From the IMG/VR virus record IMGVR_UViG_3300014208_000026, positions 128,001 through 192,000 of that record: 64,000 nt of DNA, one strand, 5' to 3'. The notes beneath the pieces were generated by a model. The model was given only the letters and a program-made list of their open reading frames with translations. It was not told the origin of the DNA and did not search any database. This stretch comes from a virus (taxonomy: Duplodnaviria; Caudoviricetes). Both the position numbers and the translations under genes were made by a program. Positions within the stretch are counted from its first letter, which is position 1. Each line of letters begins with the position of its first letter. Shown piece by piece: positions 538-63,317 of this stretch.

Positions 538-558
538 CTATCCCCTTTCCTTTAGTAG
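538..558 (+). promoter_or_regulatory. Putative phage late promoter CTAT-N11-TAGTAG
   Basis: Same motif and spacing at 2226-2246(-), 17921-17941(+) and 26561-26581(-). Confidence 0.55.
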
Positions 559-577
559 AACCTAAGGAGAACTCGTT

Positions 578-1120
578 ATGAAATCCCTGAAAGCTTCCGT
601 TGTTCGACTGGCCTACGAGCACCCTGAGTTCCGTGGTGAGCTGCTGGGTGTGCTTGCAGCTCGGCAGGGCCGTAAGACCGCCGCTTCCACAGATCCCATT
701 GGCAAAGGGAAGAATGGCTACATCGCTTTCTACAAGGGCAAGAAGGTGGAAGTGATGGCCGACACGAAGCTTCAGGCTCAGATCACGGCTGCTGCGTATT
801 TCAAGGCGAAGAAGTCGTATGAAGTGGATGTTGAACTGGCTGAGACGGACGGTAAGCAGGTGACTCATAAACCGATGTTTGCTTCATCGGTTGAGACAGC
901 GGCTAAGGCGGACCCAAATCCGTGGAAAGCCACGCACGAAATCACTTGGTCAAAAACTCGAAAAGCTCCTAAGAAAACAGTTAAGGTGATGTTGTCCTCG
1001 GACGGTCAAGTGTACACCAAGCCTGAGTGGGATGCTGGAGACAACGGGGATTTCAGTGTGCATAAGGGGGAATGGCAGTTCCAGGGTGAGCCTTTTGATG
1101 GCTCTGTCAAGAAGCTGTAG
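578..1120 (+). CDS. Putative virion-internal modular protein (leader plus two small domains)
   Basis: N-terminus MKSLKASVVRLAYEHPEFRGELLGVL closely matches that of 25583..26539; C-terminal W-x-ATH...YTKPEWDAG domain is shared with 5503..6045. Confidence 0.75.
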   Translation: MKSLKASVVRLAYEHPEFRGELLGVLAARQGRKTAASTDPIGKGKNGYIAFYKGKKVEVMADTKLQAQITAAAYFKAKKSYEVDVELAETDGKQVTHKPMFASSVETAAKADPNPWKATHEITWSKTRKAPKKTVKVMLSSDGQVYTKPEWDAGDNGDFSVHKGEWQFQGEPFDGSVKKL

Positions 1121-2203
1121 TTAGTTTCTGGCTAACCACTTTCCTACAATTTTCCTAACCAACATAGCTTTTCTAACTGCCGCCCTTTTACTCGGCCCTC
1201 CCTCATGAATCAACTCGATCTTCTCGACAGGAGCTTTCCCTACGACCTGGAAGTCCTTCACCCTGCCTGCGTCGAGGGTCTTTACGAGGTACTTTGTGTT
1301 CATGACTACCCGCCAAACGTCCCGTTCCTCGCTCGAACCTAAATCGGTTGCCAGACCGATGGCCCTATCTGCATCGGTGGTCAAGAAGATGTTCGAAGGA
1401 ACGCTATGAGCCCCTTCGTAGATTCGACGGTCTTTGGTTGGGCGGGCGGTGTAGAGGACGATCCGCTTACCTTGGTCGGAACTCCCTGGGCTACGGATTT
1501 CCTGGACCAAGGCGAAATAGTCTGCCTGTTCCTGTCCTCCGGAATCCCCGACGGGGAAGAAGTCCCTGTCTCCCCCTTCGAGCACGTCTTCCACTTCGGT
1601 GATCTTGCCGTGTTCGTCGGTAAAGACGGTGAAGTTAGCGTCGTGATCCCCCACTTCTATGCTGAAGACGTGGGAGGCTTGCATGCCTTCGTCGGTGTTG
1701 CCTGTCTCTGCTCGTATAGAAACGTGTTTCGTTTCGAAGAACGGTGCCCTAGAGATCGCTGCCTTGACTTGTGCCTGGACGGCCTTGGCATTTTTTAGAG
1801 TACCTTCCACGGTTTCTTTCTCGTACCCTGCAAATTCCTCCTTGAGTTGAGGGAAGGTTTGCGGGATGCCTTCTTCCAGTGTCTCTTCGAAGTCCATTAA
1901 CGTACGGACAAGGTGATAGAATTCGTCCCAGCGGGAGTGATCTCCTGAGTGGAGTGCCTTGGAAGAGACTTCGTTCAGCTCCAGGGCTACGGCACGGATC
2001 CCCTTCTGGTCTCGTTTACGGATGGGGTTGCCAACGTGAGGTTTGTCGAGCAGACGTTCCGCTTCCCTGGCGAGTTCCTCGGGGTTGTACTTTGTCTCGA
2101 ACTTCTTCTGGTTCCTGGCAAAGGAGTGGTCCAGGAGTTCTGCGTAGTAGTCCTTGGCCTTGGCTTCGAATCGGCTGAGGTTGATTGTCACGGTGGTGGG
2201 CAT
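1121..2203 (-). CDS. Hypothetical protein, possible C-terminal ADP-ribosyltransferase-like fold
   Basis: 360-aa ORF with late-type promoter. The C-terminal pattern LYTAR...IFLTTDADRAIGLA...VWRVVM...DFQVVGKAPVEKIELI resembles ART strand order. Confidence 0.6.
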   Translation of the reverse strand: MPTTVTINLSRFEAKAKDYYAELLDHSFARNQKKFETKYNPEELAREAERLLDKPHVGNPIRKRDQKGIRAVALELNEVSSKALHSGDHSRWDEFYHLVRTLMDFEETLEEGIPQTFPQLKEEFAGYEKETVEGTLKNAKAVQAQVKAAISRAPFFETKHVSIRAETGNTDEGMQASHVFSIEVGDHDANFTVFTDEHGKITEVEDVLEGGDRDFFPVGDSGGQEQADYFALVQEIRSPGSSDQGKRIVLYTARPTKDRRIYEGAHSVPSNIFLTTDADRAIGLATDLGSSEERDVWRVVMNTKYLVKTLDAGRVKDFQVVGKAPVEKIELIHEGGPSKRAAVRKAMLVRKIVGKWLARN

Positions 2204-5502: not shown

Positions 5503-6045
5503 TCACTCCTCGTTTATCGGGCAGTAGAGGGTTTCCAGGTCCCGCAGGCTTTTCAGAATATCGCGGGTTTCCTGTTCCACAGTCATTTCCTTTTGCCCAC
5601 TTTTGGCAGGTGTTTTGGATATCTTTACGACACGCCCCTCCTCCAGATGATCCGGAGCGTACCATGTTTCTCTCTCGTAGAAATAAGTGCATCTGTAGTG
5701 ACCTTCATCCCATTCCGATTTCGTGTAGGCAGGGCCCTCTCCTTTGCTGTTTGTTCCGTAGAGTTTTAGCTCTATGCGGTTTCCCTGTGCGTCGATCGCT
5801 ATATGGGTTGGCTTCCATTTGTTACGGATCGGTTTCACGACATACCCTGTATCGAAACGGAACCCCCGCAGGTACCACACGCCCTTTTCTCGGGCGTGTT
5901 CGCAGTCGTCGCAACCAGCGTCCCACTCGGGTTTCGTGTAGGCGGGGCCGTCGCCTCTGCTGTTCTGTTTGCACAGCATAATCTCGGTACGGTGGCCGTT
6001 GGGGGCAACCACGACGTGCGTTGCGACCCACTTTGGTTCTTCCAT
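5503..6045 (-). CDS. Protein with a tandem duplication of a W-x-x-TH...YTKxEWDxG domain
   Basis: WVATH...GPAYTKPEWDAG and WKPTH...GPAYTKSEWDEG. Confidence 0.8.
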   Translation of the reverse strand: MEEPKWVATHVVVAPNGHRTEIMLCKQNSRGDGPAYTKPEWDAGCDDCEHAREKGVWYLRGFRFDTGYVVKPIRNKWKPTHIAIDAQGNRIELKLYGTNSKGEGPAYTKSEWDEGHYRCTYFYERETWYAPDHLEEGRVVKISKTPAKSGQKEMTVEQETRDILKSLRDLETLYCPINEE

Positions 6046-14709: not shown

Positions 14710-14763
14710 TCGTCCTATAGGTTTCGGTTCTATGGGTTACACCTACGGAACCGGAACTATCCA

Positions 14764-16146
14764 ATGGCTCCTCCCAACTGGGCCCCCGCACTTGGCGAAT
14801 ATCCCACCCCGCCCATAAACGGGGCTGTCATGTCCCCCTATATCCAAGGGGCTCAGGATATCCGTTGGGACAATCCCGCCCTGCTGACAAGCAACACCTC
14901 TTTCAACGTCGTCGGCGTGAACATTTATCGCTCGGATGTTTCCGACCGCGGACCCTTTGTACGAATCAACGACGCTCCCGTGGGGGGTTCTTTCTATCGG
15001 GACTACACGGACAACATCCTCGTCTCGAAAGAGATCATCCCCTGGGACACGGGTTGGCAGTTCAAGGGGGACGCTCCAAACAACCGACAGTGGATTTTCT
15101 GGACCCGATATCCCATCGTCAAGCGGGTTACGGACGGACCTTTCCAGACTCCGACGTACGCGAACTCGATTTTCGACGTTTCAGTTACAGTAGACGGCGA
15201 GCCCGCCTATATCCACCAAGTTTACGGTGAAGGGCACCGAGTAGAACTGGTCAATCAGTGGGGGGTGGAGCCTGGGACCGAAGAGTATTTCAGCCCGAAC
15301 CTCCCGACTGCTACGAGTGAAGTTGCGGTCACCTACTACACGAGCCGGAACTTCGTCCGGTCCGGCCTCGACGCCAAGATCACATACCGCCTGACAACCG
15401 TGGCGTTGAACGAAGCCGGTACAGGGTACATTGAGACACCGCTGACGTTTGCCGAGCCTCTCTCCAGTGTTGCTGTCGAGAAGCTTAACTACATTTGGAA
15501 AGAGGCCATCCGCCGGAACTCCTGGATTCGAGATCAGTGTGGGGAGCGGGTGAAGCTGTTCATCCGGAAAATGTCGGGGGTTCGGTGTTTCTGCGGACGT
15601 GCGCCCGAAGAGGTTACGTACGCCGACCAGCCCTCCCAAATGTGTACTGTGTGTTACGGAGCCGGTTGGGTTGGGGGGTATGAAGGGCCTTACGATATCA
15701 TCATCGCTCCAGAGGATGGGCAGAGGGCAATCGCCCAGACCCCTCAGGGTCGTAAGCAGTCTTTGAACTACGAAGTGTGGACCGGTCCCTCCCCTCTGGT
15801 TACGCAGCGAGACTTGATCGTGAAGCAAACCAACGAGAGGTATTCCATCGGGCCTGTGACCCGTCCGTCGAGTCGAGGAAACATCCTGCAGCAGTCGTTC
15901 TCCATTGCTTACCTGGACCAGCAGGATATTCGGTACCGTGTTCCTGTGCCGGATCCTGCTCACCAGACTTTCCCGCAGACACGGTACACACCGAAGCCCG
16001 AGCTTTGGGACAAAGGCGGCTTGGACGGAGATCCTTGGCCGGTCGGCCCGACTGCGGTCAACCCGATGGTGGGGGATAAGGACGGGGTTTCCGTGGATAG
16101 ACAGCAGAGAGGTCGTACTCCTGCCTGGGAAAATGAAACTTGGTAA
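14764..16146 (+). CDS. Putative neck/head-tail adaptor protein
   Basis: First large gene of the morphogenesis run; CFC...CTVCYGAGWVGGY zinc motif; inferred from position. Confidence 0.55.
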   Translation: MAPPNWAPALGEYPTPPINGAVMSPYIQGAQDIRWDNPALLTSNTSFNVVGVNIYRSDVSDRGPFVRINDAPVGGSFYRDYTDNILVSKEIIPWDTGWQFKGDAPNNRQWIFWTRYPIVKRVTDGPFQTPTYANSIFDVSVTVDGEPAYIHQVYGEGHRVELVNQWGVEPGTEEYFSPNLPTATSEVAVTYYTSRNFVRSGLDAKITYRLTTVALNEAGTGYIETPLTFAEPLSSVAVEKLNYIWKEAIRRNSWIRDQCGERVKLFIRKMSGVRCFCGRAPEEVTYADQPSQMCTVCYGAGWVGGYEGPYDIIIAPEDGQRAIAQTPQGRKQSLNYEVWTGPSPLVTQRDLIVKQTNERYSIGPVTRPSSRGNILQQSFSIAYLDQQDIRYRVPVPDPAHQTFPQTRYTPKPELWDKGGLDGDPWPVGPTAVNPMVGDKDGVSVDRQQRGRTPAWENETW

Positions 16147-24052: not shown

Positions 24053-24079
24053 CCTATGAGGATAGGAGTAGGTGATTTG

Positions 24080-25567
24080 ATGGGTGGTTGTAGATCCAAA
24101 GCGACTGTAGAAGAGATATTGGCAGCTTTCCATACCGATGAAGGTTTTAAGGCCGTAGCCAAACGTTTGGGTCTGTCTCCCAACACTCTTCGGCCTATAT
24201 GGCAAGAGAAATTCGGAGAAGACGCTTTCGTGAGTAGAGGGAAAGCCCTCCAAGCCCGAGCCGCAGCCAAGACCCTCAAGGAAACAGCAGGCAGTCGGGT
24301 CTATAAAAAGGAGACAGTTCCCTGTTCAAAATGCGGGATTCAAGTGTTGCTGAAAAAGACTCAAACGGCTCAGCTTAATTGGGAGGCTTTCGTCTGTGAT
24401 GCCTGTAAGTTTGATCGGGCCTGCCCGGTTTGCGGGCAACTCGTGGATGGCAAGAAGGGTCTTGCCATCCACTTCGGACACCAGCGAAATGCAGAGGACA
24501 AGGCACATACTATCTACCAGGAAACTTTGAGCGCCCGTTATTGGGGGGATCTTGTTGAAGGGGAGGACTTTGTCAGTTGTCTTTTTTGTGGTGCCCGAGT
24601 TAAAAGCTTGGTTTTGCATCTGACTGCCGCTCATGCCATGATGGTTGGGGCTTATCGAGAGAGATTCCCCGACGCCCCTATCCAGTCTCGTAAATGTTCG
24701 GAAGCCCGCTCGGAAGCTGCTCAGAACCGAGAAGACTACGGTAAAGGAGAAACTAAGGACATTATTTGTCCCGATTGCGGGGTGTCTTGGACGGGCTCTA
24801 AATTTCTAGCCCCTGAAATGCATGACCTTCGGTGCTCCTCTTGCCGTGACAAAGCTGAAAAACTTTTGAAACAAGAGACGGAGACTTATTGGGCTGGAAA
24901 AACAGAGCCAGATGATTATGTTGAGTGCCGATTGTGTGGGTGGAAAGGGTCGGTTATTTTGGGGCATGTCTTAGGAGCCCACCCTCAAGTTCCGATGCCA
25001 GAGTACAGGAAACAGTTTCCTGGTGCCCCACTGGCAGCTACCGGAGTGTTGACTTACCCTACCCATAGGATTGATCTTACCAAGGATGACCTTGAACCTT
25101 TCAAGGACGAGAAAGGTCGAGTACAAGTTGCTAAGGCAGCAGAAGCTCTCAACTGTTCGTGGGTTACGGTTCTCCACTATTGCAGAGAAACAGGTATTCC
25201 GACTCGAAACAAGTTGGCATTCCAGAAGTTGGTGCTAGATACTGTGTCTGGCCTTTTGGGGGAGCCCTACAAATGGGAGTGGCACGACCCCAGGATTGTG
25301 AACCCTCTGACAGGCTACTGTCTATTTTTTGATGGGTTTTTCTCAGGCCCCAATCTTTTGGTCGAGGTGCACGGAAGACAGCACGATGTTCAAGTGGATT
25401 ACTGGCACAAGACCAGAGATATTTTCGAGCAGATGCAAGAGAGAGATCATTTGAAAGCCAGAATGGCGGTCCAGTTGGGATTCAAGATGCTGACTATCCG
25501 TTGGAACGAGCCCTACACGGATGTGGGGTATCTGAGGAAGAAACTCGCTAGTATTGGCGTGCTGTAG
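24080..25567 (+). CDS. Free-standing endonuclease: HTH plus multiple zinc fingers (MucR-like) plus C-terminal DUF559/Vsr-like nuclease
   Basis: Start moved to ATG 24080 after AGGAG RBS; CLFCG...HLTAAH...YRERFPDAP and CRLCG...HVLGAH...YRKQFPGAP repeats; FFDGFF...LLVEVHGRQH...RDHLK. Confidence 0.8.
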   Translation: MGGCRSKATVEEILAAFHTDEGFKAVAKRLGLSPNTLRPIWQEKFGEDAFVSRGKALQARAAAKTLKETAGSRVYKKETVPCSKCGIQVLLKKTQTAQLNWEAFVCDACKFDRACPVCGQLVDGKKGLAIHFGHQRNAEDKAHTIYQETLSARYWGDLVEGEDFVSCLFCGARVKSLVLHLTAAHAMMVGAYRERFPDAPIQSRKCSEARSEAAQNREDYGKGETKDIICPDCGVSWTGSKFLAPEMHDLRCSSCRDKAEKLLKQETETYWAGKTEPDDYVECRLCGWKGSVILGHVLGAHPQVPMPEYRKQFPGAPLAATGVLTYPTHRIDLTKDDLEPFKDEKGRVQVAKAAEALNCSWVTVLHYCRETGIPTRNKLAFQKLVLDTVSGLLGEPYKWEWHDPRIVNPLTGYCLFFDGFFSGPNLLVEVHGRQHDVQVDYWHKTRDIFEQMQERDHLKARMAVQLGFKMLTIRWNEPYTDVGYLRKKLASIGVL

Positions 25568-25582
25568 ATAGGACGAGAAGAA

Positions 25583-26539
25583 CTAGATCACCGCAGGAAC
25601 GCCAGCCTTCATCAGGTCCGACTTTTCTTTCGTGAGCAGGCGGTCGAGAAGAACGGCCTGATCATGGGCTCCCGTAGTTTCCATCAAGTGGACGCAGAAG
25701 GACGCCACTAACATCGGGGTCGTGAGCTTCTTGGCGACGAGGGCCAGCAGAGCCTTGAATGCCATCGGGAAGCGGAGCGTGAAGCCAGCGGTCTTTACGT
25801 TAGTATCGGTGCTGGCCAGAACAGTAGCGGCCGGTTCAACATTCCCGAGGGCCACGAAATCCGACTTCTCACGGGTGAAGAGGCGGTCGACCAGAACGGC
25901 CTGATCGTGGTAACCCTTGGTTTCGAGCAGATAGACCACAAAGGCGGCCACCGTCAGGGGGTTCGGAAGTTTGGCGGCTACGACGCCCATTAGCGTCTTG
26001 AAAGCCATGGGGTAGTGGAACACAAAACCTGCTGTCTTCACTGCTGGAGCGCTGGCGGTCTTGTCCGCTTCAGGCTCCGCCTTCTTCAAGTCCCCCTTCT
26101 TCTGAGCGAGGATCTTGTCGATTTTAACTGCTTCCGCCGTGGCGCCCAGGACGTCCAGGAGGTGAACGCAGAAAGCTGCGGCAACCAGCGGGTTGGGCAT
26201 TTTCTTGGCAACCATGGCCAGGAGAGCCTTCTGAGCCGGATTCAGCTTGAGCTGGTAGGTCGGGCCGTCAGCAGCCTTCTTGGCAATGTCTTCGATCTTG
26301 CCTTTGTTGGCTTCCCACTTAGCTTTCGCTTCGGGGCTCATGCTATCCGTGGGGTCTTTGCCCGCCTTCTTGGCAATGTCTTCAATCTTGCCCTTGTTTG
26401 CTTCCCACTTGGCCTTGGCCTCGGGGCTCATGTTCTCGGTGGGGTCCGCTCCGGCGGTCTTGAGCACGCCGAGCAGTTCGGAGCGGAATTTCGGAAGGTC
26501 GTGAGCGAGTCGGACGATGGACGCACGAAGATTCTTCAT
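25583..26539 (-). CDS. Putative virion-internal repeat protein with N-terminal leader
   Basis: Leader shared with 578..1120; two 30-aa repeats and three roughly 65-aa repeats separated by KTA/KKA. Confidence 0.8.
   Translation of the reverse strand: MKNLRASIVRLAHDLPKFRSELLGVLKTAGADPTENMSPEAKAKWEANKGKIEDIAKKAGKDPTDSMSPEAKAKWEANKGKIEDIAKKAADGPTYQLKLNPAQKALLAMVAKKMPNPLVAAAFCVHLLDVLGATAEAVKIDKILAQKKGDLKKAEPEADKTASAPAVKTAGFVFHYPMAFKTLMGVVAAKLPNPLTVAAFVVYLLETKGYHDQAVLVDRLFTREKSDFVALGNVEPAATVLASTDTNVKTAGFTLRFPMAFKALLALVAKKLTTPMLVASFCVHLMETTGAHDQAVLLDRLLTKEKSDLMKAGVPAVI
26274..26446 (-). repeat. Coding tandem repeat, 90-bp period, two copies
   Basis: DPT(E/D)(N/S)MSPEAKAKWEANKGKIEDIAKKA twice; DNA copies begin at 26274 and 26364. 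Confidence 0.9.
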
Positions 26540-26560
26540 AGGATGTTTCTCCCTTAGGTT

Positions 26561-26581
26561 CTACTAAGGGAAAGGCTATAG
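26561..26581 (-). promoter_or_regulatory. Putative late promoter CTAT-N11-TAGTAG
   Basis: Minus strand CTATAGCCTTTCCCTTAGTAGAACCTAAGGGAGAA closely matches 538-571. Confidence 0.6.
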
Positions 26582-60560: not shown

Positions 60561-63317
60561 ATGCCCGCACCGCCTCCTGTTATCACTACTGTGGCTGACG
60601 CTAACAAGGCTTCGGATGATGGTAAATGGCTTACCCTTAGTGTCGGGTTGCCCGATTACCTGAAGGACGCCAAGGACAAGTTTCATAGTGGGGCTTCCAC
60701 TCTCATTACGTTGATGGATATTGCCCTGGCGGCTCTCCGGCTGGCCAAGGCACTGTCTCTGTCCTACCTCGATCCCTTGATCGCTATTCTGGAAGCGATT
60801 GTCAACGAGCTTCAAGGGTACATCAACGATCTCACGAAGGGTGGGATTTTCATTTCGGGGGACTGGAAGTATTTCGTGGCTCCCTTCGAGGACCTGCGGG
60901 GCGGGTTCTCTGCTTATGAGCGTCGGATGGTGTCCCGTTTCGCCGATCCGACGGACCCGACACGCCCGAATCTGTCCCCCTCGTCGGCGGCTATGGCGGT
61001 GTTTGTGTACTCCGAAGAGGACCTGACGGCGGTCATGAATATCGTGCGGCTGGTCAAGCTGCTCATGAAGTTCTTTGGGCAGGATTTCCTTCCGAAGGGC
61101 CTACCGGCCGTTTCGAACTTGAAGGTTGCTTACGGGCTTGCGGATATGAACGCTTTCGACTATTTCCGAAGCTTGGGGGATTACTTCGACTCGTCGAACG
61201 CGGGCAAGGTTCCAAACGTCGCCCGAGTAACCTGGAACGCGAATATCACCCCGAACAGCATGGGCTTGACTCTCCCCAATATCACTGTCGGCGGGTACTT
61301 GATTCAGGTTTCGACGGTGAAGGATGGGTTGCCTATCTACTACGAGAGGAACGTGGACAACGTTCCCAAGACGATTCTGCCCTCGGGTGGGACAGCGACT
61401 CAGAAAGTCGTGGGCAGGGTTCTTGACCCCTCGGGACAGCCTCTCACTCTTTATGGCGGTGCAGATCAGATTTTCGTCGAAGGAGCTTTGGGTTTCAACT
61501 CGAACATCGACGCGAATGGTGTTTTGAGGCCCGGGGCCGCTCGTGTGTTCGCCAAGAAATCTCAGGCGGATGACGTTGCTATCCCTCTGGATTTGTTGAA
61601 GGACGGGGACGATTACCTGTACCAGAAGACCTTTTTCCTGGATGCTACGACAGCGGCCTTCTATCCAGGGGACGGGTTTGGTTTCCCGTTGGCTTATGAC
61701 CAAATGCCCTTTGATGCTACGGCAAAGCAGGAGTCTGACGGGACTGTGATTTTGGTGAAGGGGGAGCGACCCCTCAATTACTACGTGCGGGTCACTCCGA
61801 CCAGTACCGGTGTTACAAGTGCTGCGGGGGAAAAGGGTGTGACAGGGGAGGGTTCTTTCTATTTCTGGCTCAGCTCAGATACGATAAGTGCCCCGCAACC
61901 GTTTAGAGCGACCGCCGCGGGGGTGAACTCTAAGGGTGAGCGTTTGGAAATGGGGGCGGACTATGGCCAGACTTCCGACGCCCTCCCGATTCTGTTCCCG
62001 AGCATCAACACCAAGACCTACATGGATCGCGTAGCTATTGCCCTCGCAGTGCTGGTTCTGAGCCGCTCGGATCTTTCCGTGTACGAAGGAACGGATCCCG
62101 CCAGTGAGTTCAATACCAAAGGTATGGCCAGGACCCCCACGGGGTTGGAGCCTTTCGGGTCTTTGGTCAACTGGATTTACTCTGGCCCCAACAACGTTTT
62201 CGAAAGCCCCGATACTTCTCCAGATAGTTTCCGCAGTGACCTGTGGAGTCGGTGTCGACAACTGGCCTATGACCTGTACCAGAAAACGGGCCCTATGCCC
62301 GCTATCGAAGAGTTTGTCGTGGCCCAGACAGGGTTGCTGGACACCTGGACTTGGGGGCAGGATTCTGGAAACTTTCTCCTGGCAGGGACGAAAGCGACTA
62401 TCGTAGAGTCTTTGAATGCTAACGCAAAAGCCGGAGAATACGAGGGGCTTGCTCTCAACCCTTGGTGCCTTGCTCCGCTAAGCGTGGTGCAGGGCACTTA
62501 TCTTGCCCCTACGGGAAGTCCTATCAATTCCAGGGAGCCAGGATTCTTTGCTTTCCTGCCTGAACGGGTTTTTACCAAGGACGGCTATACCCAGGAGGAA
62601 TTGCATTCGACGCTGGCTCCGTACCCCCCGCTACAGGCTCAGTTCCGGATGTCTATTGAAATGGGGTCTTGGCCGATAAATCAGGTGGACAGGCTCTACT
62701 ATTTGCCTCCGCAGTTCGTTTCTGGAGACTCGGGCAAGCTAGAAGGTTCGGAAGACCATTCGCCTATCTATTACACGAACTGGGGCGCTTTGAAGACCGG
62801 AACGGGAGGGCAGATTTTCTTCTGCCGGAACCTGTTCTCCGCCGAGGTGTATAAGCAGGCGGCCGTGGCTTTGAACATAGCGGCTTCTTCTTTCGGGCGG
62901 CGTAAGGATAAGGGCGAGTGGATTGCCATTCGGCCTTTCCAAGCCATGCCCGACCTGTTCGGAATGCTGGACACCATCGTCATGTGGGCTCAGGGACTGA
63001 CCGCAGGGTTGAAATCTATTGCGGATGCTCTCGATTCCTACATTGAGTTCATCGAGGCCCGTATCCTGGAAATCCAGCAGTTGATTCGGCGCATTGACGC
63101 CCTCGTGCAGTCCATCGAGATGATTCAGGTTCCGAGTTTCAGTGGGTTGATAGTGCATGGTAACGGGACGGACGGGCTCCTCTCGGGGTTCCTTTCGGCT
63201 CAGGACAAGCCCTCTAGTAGCGGTGCCGATGTGTACGGGGCGGGGGTCGTAATTGTCATGGGCGGGATTCCGGCTGCGAGTGTTCCTCTCCTGGAACTGT
63301 TGTTGGCGAAGGTGTAG
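60561..63317 (+). CDS. Large virion/baseplate-associated protein
   Basis: 918 aa; helical N- and C-termini around a beta-rich middle. Confidence 0.7.
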   Translation: MPAPPPVITTVADANKASDDGKWLTLSVGLPDYLKDAKDKFHSGASTLITLMDIALAALRLAKALSLSYLDPLIAILEAIVNELQGYINDLTKGGIFISGDWKYFVAPFEDLRGGFSAYERRMVSRFADPTDPTRPNLSPSSAAMAVFVYSEEDLTAVMNIVRLVKLLMKFFGQDFLPKGLPAVSNLKVAYGLADMNAFDYFRSLGDYFDSSNAGKVPNVARVTWNANITPNSMGLTLPNITVGGYLIQVSTVKDGLPIYYERNVDNVPKTILPSGGTATQKVVGRVLDPSGQPLTLYGGADQIFVEGALGFNSNIDANGVLRPGAARVFAKKSQADDVAIPLDLLKDGDDYLYQKTFFLDATTAAFYPGDGFGFPLAYDQMPFDATAKQESDGTVILVKGERPLNYYVRVTPTSTGVTSAAGEKGVTGEGSFYFWLSSDTISAPQPFRATAAGVNSKGERLEMGADYGQTSDALPILFPSINTKTYMDRVAIALAVLVLSRSDLSVYEGTDPASEFNTKGMARTPTGLEPFGSLVNWIYSGPNNVFESPDTSPDSFRSDLWSRCRQLAYDLYQKTGPMPAIEEFVVAQTGLLDTWTWGQDSGNFLLAGTKATIVESLNANAKAGEYEGLALNPWCLAPLSVVQGTYLAPTGSPINSREPGFFAFLPERVFTKDGYTQEELHSTLAPYPPLQAQFRMSIEMGSWPINQVDRLYYLPPQFVSGDSGKLEGSEDHSPIYYTNWGALKTGTGGQIFFCRNLFSAEVYKQAAVALNIAASSFGRRKDKGEWIAIRPFQAMPDLFGMLDTIVMWAQGLTAGLKSIADALDSYIEFIEARILEIQQLIRRIDALVQSIEMIQVPSFSGLIVHGNGTDGLLSGFLSAQDKPSSSGADVYGAGVVIVMGGIPAASVPLLELLLAKV

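Follow-up and report, generated by a model that had tools for sequence, protein, structure and literature searches.

The DNA analysed here, referred to as the window, is a 64,000-nucleotide stretch (positions 128001-192000) of a 257,181-bp IMG/VR virus record, which comes from a groundwater metagenome and has a CheckV completeness of 49%. Two open reading frames in the window, gene A (578..1120 on the plus strand, 180 aa, stop codon included in the coordinates) and gene B (25583..26539 on the minus strand, 318 aa), had been proposed in a first-pass annotation to join unrelated bodies to common upstream DNA and a common 26-residue leader. This description, with about 50 nt of upstream DNA, is borne out by the reading frames, by pairwise alignment and by BLASTP. 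Nucleotide likeness between the two genes is limited to about -50 to +78 around the ATG. Alignment of the 60 nt ahead of the ATG gives 46 identities in 63 columns, the core that runs from CCTAT to CTAAGG being almost the same in both genes, and 49 of 78 positions agree in the DNA coding for the leader, the corresponding figures being 41 of 83 in the 78 nt after the leader coding and 31 of 65, which is the background level, between -120 and -60. An exact search of both the window and the whole record places the 16-mer TTAGTAGAACCTAAGG at exactly two sites, 552-567 (plus) and 26552-26567 (minus), one ahead of each gene. On the protein level, BLASTP aligns residues 1-26 alone (18/26 identical, 24/26 similar) and detects no similarity between the bodies of A and B beyond them. 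The leader had also been described as being followed by KTA, which holds directly for B; in A, the KTA lies six residues further on (RQGRKTA). The leader segment of A (578..682, plus) thus comprises residues 1-35, with the module proper at 1-26/32 and a candidate cut, marked here and below by an arrow, at RKTA↓AS ending with A35, and that of B (26453..26539, minus) comprises residues 1-29, with the module at 1-26 followed by KTA↓G.

The DNA ahead of both leaders contains a promoter-like element and a hairpin that includes the RBS. Upstream of A, a T-run (529-533) precedes CCTATCC (537-543, plus), a variant of the record-wide motif CCTATAG, and upstream of B a motif scan finds a T-run at 26589-26586 and CCTATAG itself at 26582-26576 (minus). 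The shared 5' leader RNA extends over 544..577 (plus) in A, with a hairpin CCTTTAG...CTAAGG whose 3' arm overlaps the Shine-Dalgarno sequence AAGGAG (564-569), and over 26540..26575 (minus) in B, with a 10-bp hairpin that holds the Shine-Dalgarno sequence AAGGGAG within its 3' arm. Folding gives a weak hairpin for A (-6.3 kcal/mol, z 0.6) and a strong one for B (-17.4 kcal/mol, z -3.15, equalled by 0 of 200 shuffles). CCTATAG occurs at 36 sites in the record, 23 of which are intergenic, intergenic DNA accounting for 5.7% of the bases. It commonly stands 24-60 nt 5' of a start codon, often with a T-run ahead of it, and is often followed about 8-11 nt downstream by a TAGGTAG-like word. This promoter-like class precedes A, B, the two further leader genes E and F, the convergent neighbour of A (1121..2203, minus) and about a dozen other genes, and the motif scan gives further CCTATAG sites in the window at 2241-2235 (minus), 14714-14720 (plus) and 13235-13229 (minus). 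The genes behind CCTATAG that were scanned, as well as their neighbours, have no PHROGs or Pfam annotation. A search of the listed sequencing runs turned up two from groundwater DNA and none from RNA. The CTATAG core resembles the promoters of T7-type single-subunit polymerases, and CCTATAG, judged by its sequence, is probably the promoter of a phage-specific transcription system. Among 20 leader genes of related phages, CTATA-N-GTAGG-like motifs are seen by eye ahead of roughly half, and the strict pattern C[CT]TATA[GA] ahead of 4. In a 503-aa protein encoded beside B (24056-25567, plus), Pfam finds a zinc-finger DNA-binding domain of the ROS/MucR type (E 4.7e-10) along with weaker HTH matches; the protein is a candidate transcription regulator.

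The earlier suggestion of a promoter-RBS-leader cassette placed in front of unrelated bodies gains backing from a second, independent pair, formed by E and F (record positions 82362 and 119924), in which 23 of 27 leader residues are identical, the bodies are unrelated and the upstream DNA held in common has the form CCTATAG-N-G-N-CTGTCTGGGTAG. The nearest leader relatives are A and B for one another, and E and F likewise. Promoter, RBS and tag would move jointly as one cassette, consisting in A and B of the promoter-like element and the RBS-containing hairpin.

The leader module and its cargo

A profile built from the leaders of A and B, with one iteration over all six-frame open reading frames of the record, finds eight members with E values of 1e-13 to 1e-19 (1e-15 for A and 3.5e-17 for B), the next match having an E value of 0.2, and the bodies differ among the eight. 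Seven copies are N-terminal, namely those of A, B and the genes at record positions 62628, 63309, 64571, 82362 and 119924, and one is C-terminal, forming the last 29 residues of the product of 67416..68114 of the record, with RLA↓S just ahead of it. The consensus in the record reads LR-x-x-(L/V)(I/V)(R/K)LA(H/Y)-x-x-PE(L/F)R-x-x-L(L/M)P(L/V)L(K/R), then (K)TA, and the 26-30-residue module can be written in shorter form as LR-x-x-LIRLAH-x-x-PELR-x-x-LLPLLK-x-A. AlphaFold2 models the leader of A as a confident two-helix hairpin (helices at residues 2-14 and 16-32, pLDDT 83-94), followed at residues 34-43 by a disordered linker (pLDDT <50) that contains RKTA↓AS, and the net charge of the leaders ranges from +2 to +5. 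No profile in Pfam, PHROGs or NCBIfam covers the leader, no relevant paper found by a literature search with motif strings contains the leader motif, and an ESM Atlas feature search returned nothing, the structure matches being generic helical hairpins. The leaders of A and B are copies of a basic hairpin module of two helices that is portable, widespread and undescribed.

The expectation that a leader profile would recur in many genes with varied cargo is amply realised, with 8 copies here, up to 25 in a 497-kb relative and thousands of metagenomic clusters. Module matches in five related records (372-619 kb) number 25, 19, 9, 1 and 0, and the capsid protein is 85-88% identical in the related huge phages with up to 25 copies, the number reached in the 497-kb phage. 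A search of 1.84 billion representatives with the leader profile yields 3,599 metagenomic clusters at E <= 1e-3, of which 272 reach E <= 1e-10, and a strict leader pattern finds 70 copies in IMG/VR. GenBank holds a single match to the module, in an uncultured 485-kb phage. In the cultured phages Tunturi_5 and G, the module was not found in either, so that their virion data are not transferable to it. Twelve of the 18 leader-bearing IMG/VR contigs tested encode the same capsid lineage (76-86% identity), and the six with no full-length capsid match are 16-36% complete, two of them having a short capsid-like fragment.

As a description of position, "N-terminal leader" is accurate for seven of the eight record copies; it does not extend to the C-terminal, tandem and internal copies that also occur. 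Most of 28 distinct copies from the related records start within about 14 residues after the Met of an open frame, while three are C-terminal and several are the second or third copy of a tandem. The top metagenomic matches have two to six module copies each, and 178 of the 357 copies among them are internal or tandem. Leader genes of relatives are often found on the strand of the capsid gene, 2-10 kb downstream of it; they are also dispersed over the genomes beyond the head module, some of them among metabolic or replication-like genes.

The cargo of A (683..1120, plus) consists of a confidently modelled small alpha/beta domain (domain 1, about residues 44-97) and a poorly modelled C-terminal part. 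Domain 1 matches phrog_19202 (E 1e-4) and is present without the leader in P0158 and P0159; a Foldseek search of the A model against the PDB gave no match at E <= 0.001, and A has almost no full-length homologues. A YTKxEWD motif is common to the C-terminal part of A and to a leaderless 180-aa protein at 5503-6045 (minus) of the window, the two proteins being 18-23% identical overall in a MAFFT alignment, a weak relation. The cargo of B (25583..26452, minus) is made up of two DPTENMSPE..W..N repeats followed by three helical modules of ~70 aa, and the body holds further KTA[SG] sites at residues 160, 168 and 249, of which those at 168 and 249 each abut a module that starts with GF. No full-length homologue of B was found; its DPTxNMS module stands alongside leaders in 12 of the 150 top metagenomic matches (P0023, P0041, P0008 and others). 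Mini-modules accompany the DPTENMSPE repeat and the hairpin in the 150 top metagenomic proteins, GEFTQQE in 11 and GCEKLP in 14, and GEFTQQE is also present in a 195-aa protein (record 101930-102517) whose gene lies upstream of that for the head protease, at a distance of 0.6 kb.

Across 115 multi-copy members, the cargo is mostly unknown and diverse, with single cases of pentapeptide repeats, WGR, RelA/SpoT and Zn ribbons, and P0001 has a GNAT domain. Five of six leader-protein bodies have a pI of 9.1-9.6. The body of gene G (record 62628-63296) matches Fusello_VP2_Capsid, PF25632 (E 4.6e-7, 30.6 bits vs a cut-off of 27); the VP2 of fuselloviruses is a DNA-binding virion protein. The same body also matches phrog_15706.

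Head genes and the K-x-A motif

The major capsid protein of the record (108768..109643, 291 aa) matches phrog_2522 (E 3e-50) and is of the PF25209-type HK97 family. Its relatives number 563 in IMG/VR, the best 80 at 83-88% identity, and 1,974 in a large protein collection, and records of this capsid lineage reach 619 kb. Cultured relatives are distant: Tunturiibacter phage Tunturi_5 (49%), Bacillus phage G (37%) and cluster-C mycobacteriophages (27%). The genes upstream of the capsid gene encode a 222-aa protein, a 459-aa acidic protein in the scaffold position (pI 4.1, 141 Asp+Glu) and a product of 1,104 aa (103161-106475), which is the head maturation protease with two Hint/intein insertions, at about residues 129-615 and 672-806. 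The identity of the protease is based on a PHROGs match, that of its intein-less orthologues (about 455-545 aa) to phrog_18299, head maturation protease (E 1e-14). The Pfam S78 and S77 models had no match in the record, a PDB profile search with an intein-less orthologue gave nothing meaningful, and the AlphaFold2 model of the orthologue, with a mean pLDDT of 47.6, was too poor for a fold search. Other relatives of the protease, with one to several insertions, are 900-1,371 aa long. The order protease, acidic scaffold, ~220-aa protein, capsid protein is conserved across the clade and is identical in Tunturi_5, in which the protease gene is annotated as a protease. A head maturation protease is thereby encoded beside the scaffold and the capsid protein, the arrangement looked for in a prohead-protease system. 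Neither gp329 nor gp330 of Tunturi_5 is similar to the proteins of 195 aa and 205 aa encoded upstream of the protease.

The tripeptide KTA occurs 56 times in the proteome vs 24 expected, and [KR]TA[ASG] 48 times vs 10.5 +/- 3.1 in within-protein shuffles, an about fivefold enrichment. Observed and expected numbers of [KR]TA[ASG] are 4 and 0.09 in the scaffold, 4 and 0.15 in the protease, 4 and 0.12 in B, and 2 and 0.07 in the 195-aa protein upstream of the protease; there are none in the capsid protein or in the 222-aa protein. Scaffolds of relatives hold 6-13 [KR]xA[ASG] sites. Fourteen protease orthologues share R-(T/V/I)-A-(S/G) near residue 25, in which the Arg is invariant and the Ala and Ser nearly so, the junction between catalytic domain and tail keeps K-x-A (K293 invariant, A295 nearly so), and a third site lies near residue 380; to judge from the alignment of orthologues, these conserved sites have the pattern expected of self-processing sites. 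In the wider module family, K-x-A follows the module in most copies, and [KR]xA[SAGT] stands immediately ahead of it in 130 of the 234 copies whose distance from the N-terminus is 12 residues or more (e.g. GKKAS-LRSSLIRLA), the residue after the Ala of K-x-A being variable in relatives. We infer from these sequences that [KR]-x-A is a candidate recognition motif, which may link the module to the head protease.

Another short terminal motif, (R/K)(V/I)A(S/G)R(Y/F/W)L, has 14 occurrences in the record. It is found at the N-terminus in the genes at 69026, 93536, 113751 and 229060, at the C-terminus in those at 16051, 82920, 85819, 87929, 117068 and 117820, and internally in those at 85819, 87929 and 95131. 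The motif holds R-V-A↓S, and may be an extended form of the candidate protease site, not a separate tag.

A possible role in procapsid loading

The reading that we favour, and to which we would give about an even chance, is that the module is a docking tag for procapsid loading, which the head protease takes off at [KR]-x-A. The module is attached, in a clade of uncultured huge phages, to the N-termini of many unrelated proteins, less often to their C-termini and sometimes in tandem, and the hairpin would dock each tagged protein to a common partner within the assembling procapsid, the candidates being the very acidic scaffold and the inner face of the HK97-type capsid protein. Cleavage of the flexible linker at [KR]-x-A by the head maturation protease (RKTA↓AS for A, LKTA↓GA for B) would set free a mostly small, basic cargo inside the head, and the scaffold would be processed at this motif too. 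Capsid targeting and proteolytic removal of the tag are plausible and have indirect support in the flanking [KR]-x-A that the module has in common with the scaffold and the protease junctions, the disordered linker and the basic cargo. A more far-reaching form of this reading, which we hold tentatively and at something short of an even chance, is a general programmable loading code of the huge phages of this capsid lineage, in which a hairpin tag and a [KR]-x-A cut site, at either terminus or between the units of a polyprotein, would allow dozens of effectors to be packed and released free for injection, and in which the promoter-RBS-tag cassette would recruit new cargo genes by recombination.

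Several points speak against loading. Leader genes are scattered in the genomes instead of being confined to the head module, the tag is dispensable for assembly, as two relatives whose capsid proteins are almost the same have 0 and 1 copies of it, the internal or multiple copies in many metagenomic proteins also fit a general interaction repeat, and the K-x-A that ends helix 2 could have a structural role instead of being a cut site. An alternative, which we regard as unlikely, is a general role of the hairpin in protein-protein interaction or oligomerisation, with no relation to capsids. It might link proteins to a hub of the phage or the host, for example a polymerase, replication factory or chaperone, or serve for self-association, and the K-x-A flanks would then be helix caps or the sites of another protease. 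Such a module would sit well with the frequency of internal and tandem copies (178/357 in the top matches), with the dispersal of leader genes, some among metabolic or replication-like genes, and with the promoter-like motif ahead of many leaderless genes as well; it fits poorly with the strong bias of the module to protein termini within genomes, with a flanking motif that is the one over-represented in the scaffold and kept at the junctions of the head protease, and with the co-occurrence of the module with a single capsid lineage.

That the hairpin is an assembly module, i.e., a scaffold-like multivalent coat-binding domain of the kind that the P22 scaffolding protein has in its C-terminal helix-turn-helix, and that the tagged proteins are auxiliary scaffolds or internal structural proteins for which delivery to the host is not needed, we judge to be distinctly improbable. 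The syntenic scaffold beside the capsid gene is without the hairpin in every relative examined, the cargo includes enzyme-like and DNA-mimic-like families, and phages that hardly differ in their capsid protein have anything from 0 to 25 copies. On the other hand, many metagenomic members, with two to six hairpins and acidic linkers, have a scaffold-like look, P0014 and P0016 have the FTQQE module between two hairpins, and it recurs in the 195-aa protein 0.6 kb upstream of the protease gene, which is rich in [KR]xA[ASG], and the flanking K-x-A sites would permit removal, as for scaffolds.

The basic and amphipathic character of the leader, its LLPLL stretch and its terminal position could also be those of a membrane-binding or export signal to the host membrane or periplasm, which we consider very unlikely: the hydrophobic core is too short for Sec, the leader sequences, read for Sec and Tat features, have neither a hydrophobic core nor an RR motif, the leader is confidently modelled as a self-packed hairpin, and the module is also found C-terminally and in tandem. 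Ordinary paralogy, by which A and B would be whole-gene duplicates with bodies diverged beyond recognition and no modular tag would exist, agrees with the mutual closeness of the A and B leaders and of those of E and F, and is nevertheless hardly credible given the abrupt end of the A/B similarity at the leader end, the leaderless occurrence of the A cargo domain in other phages, and the presence of the module at C-termini and on recognisably different Pfam domains.

If the hairpin is indeed a removable docking tag for procapsid loading, it would be the first sorting signal known for uncultured huge phages, by which packaged and possibly injected unknown genes could be marked from sequence alone, and it would provide a direct route to early host-takeover and anti-defence factors. 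This reading would also predict the specificity of a new branch of head proteases, with cleavage after Ala, not Glu, and foreign proteins could be loaded into HK97-type shells by means of a compact tag with its release site. Even without a link to the capsid, a 30-residue module that is found on thousands of phage protein clusters and has no family entry merits description.

Comparison with known systems

The capsid-targeting sequence of phage T4 has ~10 residues (MKTYQEFIAE-type), lies at the extreme N-terminus, ends in the gp21 site Leu/Ile-x-Glu, and can be ported to foreign cargo. It is carried by the internal proteins IPI-III and by Alt (Mullaney & Black 1996, as cited in PMC10052503). 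The present module is similar in being a short N-terminal peptide common to unrelated small basic proteins and followed by a protease site, which is only a candidate here. Unlike the T4 sequence, it is a 26-30-residue two-helix hairpin with [KR]-x-A and no sequence similarity to the T4 peptide; it is also found C-terminally, in tandem and in polyprotein-like chains, and up to 25 proteins per genome are tagged. Since length, sequence and cut motif all differ, the module, by these sequence features, is not a member of the T4 capsid-targeting family.

In phiKZ, 201phi2-1 and SPN3US, head and ejection proteins have N-terminal propeptides that are removed by gp175/gp245 (PMC10052503). Many head proteins are processed in this manner in these giant phages, some propeptides being 20-24 residues long, and the protease also processes itself; the sites are A-x-E, and the system was demonstrated by mass spectrometry (PMC10052503). 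Processing was thus established there by mass spectrometry, whereas here the candidate site is [KR]-x-A and processing is inferred from sequence. To our knowledge, the propeptides of phiKZ, 201phi2-1 and SPN3US are not one conserved, reusable module.

Terminal helical docking elements are known from other capsids. The C-terminal tail of the herpesvirus scaffold is a short terminal helix that docks to the capsid floor, and assemblin cuts the M-site after Ala (x-x-A↓S). A terminal helical docking element and release by a protease of the same lineage at A↓S are likewise proposed here, with the difference that the herpesvirus tail is on the scaffold only and its partner and cleavage have been demonstrated, whereas the present module is on varied cargo and its partner and cleavage are putative. 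The scaffolding protein of P22 has a C-terminal helix-turn-helix coat-binding domain, and encapsulins use cargo-loading peptides at either terminus. These small terminal peptides or hairpins bind inside an HK97-fold shell and are sufficient for loading, as is proposed for the module; they are, however, not related to it in sequence and are not removed by a protease. As to the upstream DNA, T4-type promoter-stem-loop cassettes (PeSL) reportedly place repeated promoter-plus-hairpin DNA next to unrelated genes. Repeated promoter and hairpin DNA beside unrelated genes could drive modular shuffling by recombination in both cases, but the repeat described here is of a different promoter class and runs into the coding region, where it carries a peptide tag.

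With regard to the docking partner, a complex prediction for capsid protein and leader gave a score of 0.00, which, with controls not run, is no evidence on binding either way. Acidic 'EEKAMLAEML' repeats of the scaffold were discarded as a docking site, as they are not conserved in leader-rich relatives. A homology between leader and protease was likewise dismissed: hhalign picks out a conserved 'TLIRLAK' helix at the C-terminus of the protease, which covers 7 columns only at a probability of 0.7% and is not evidence. Small open reading frames resembling isolated parts of the capsid protein were observed in related phages (G015:C1:6586-6771, G018:C1:147683-147829 and G022:C1:26879-27103), and in P0004 a capsid N-arm-like stretch at residues 57-73 (9/17 identical, pairwise E 4e-4) is joined to three hairpin modules.
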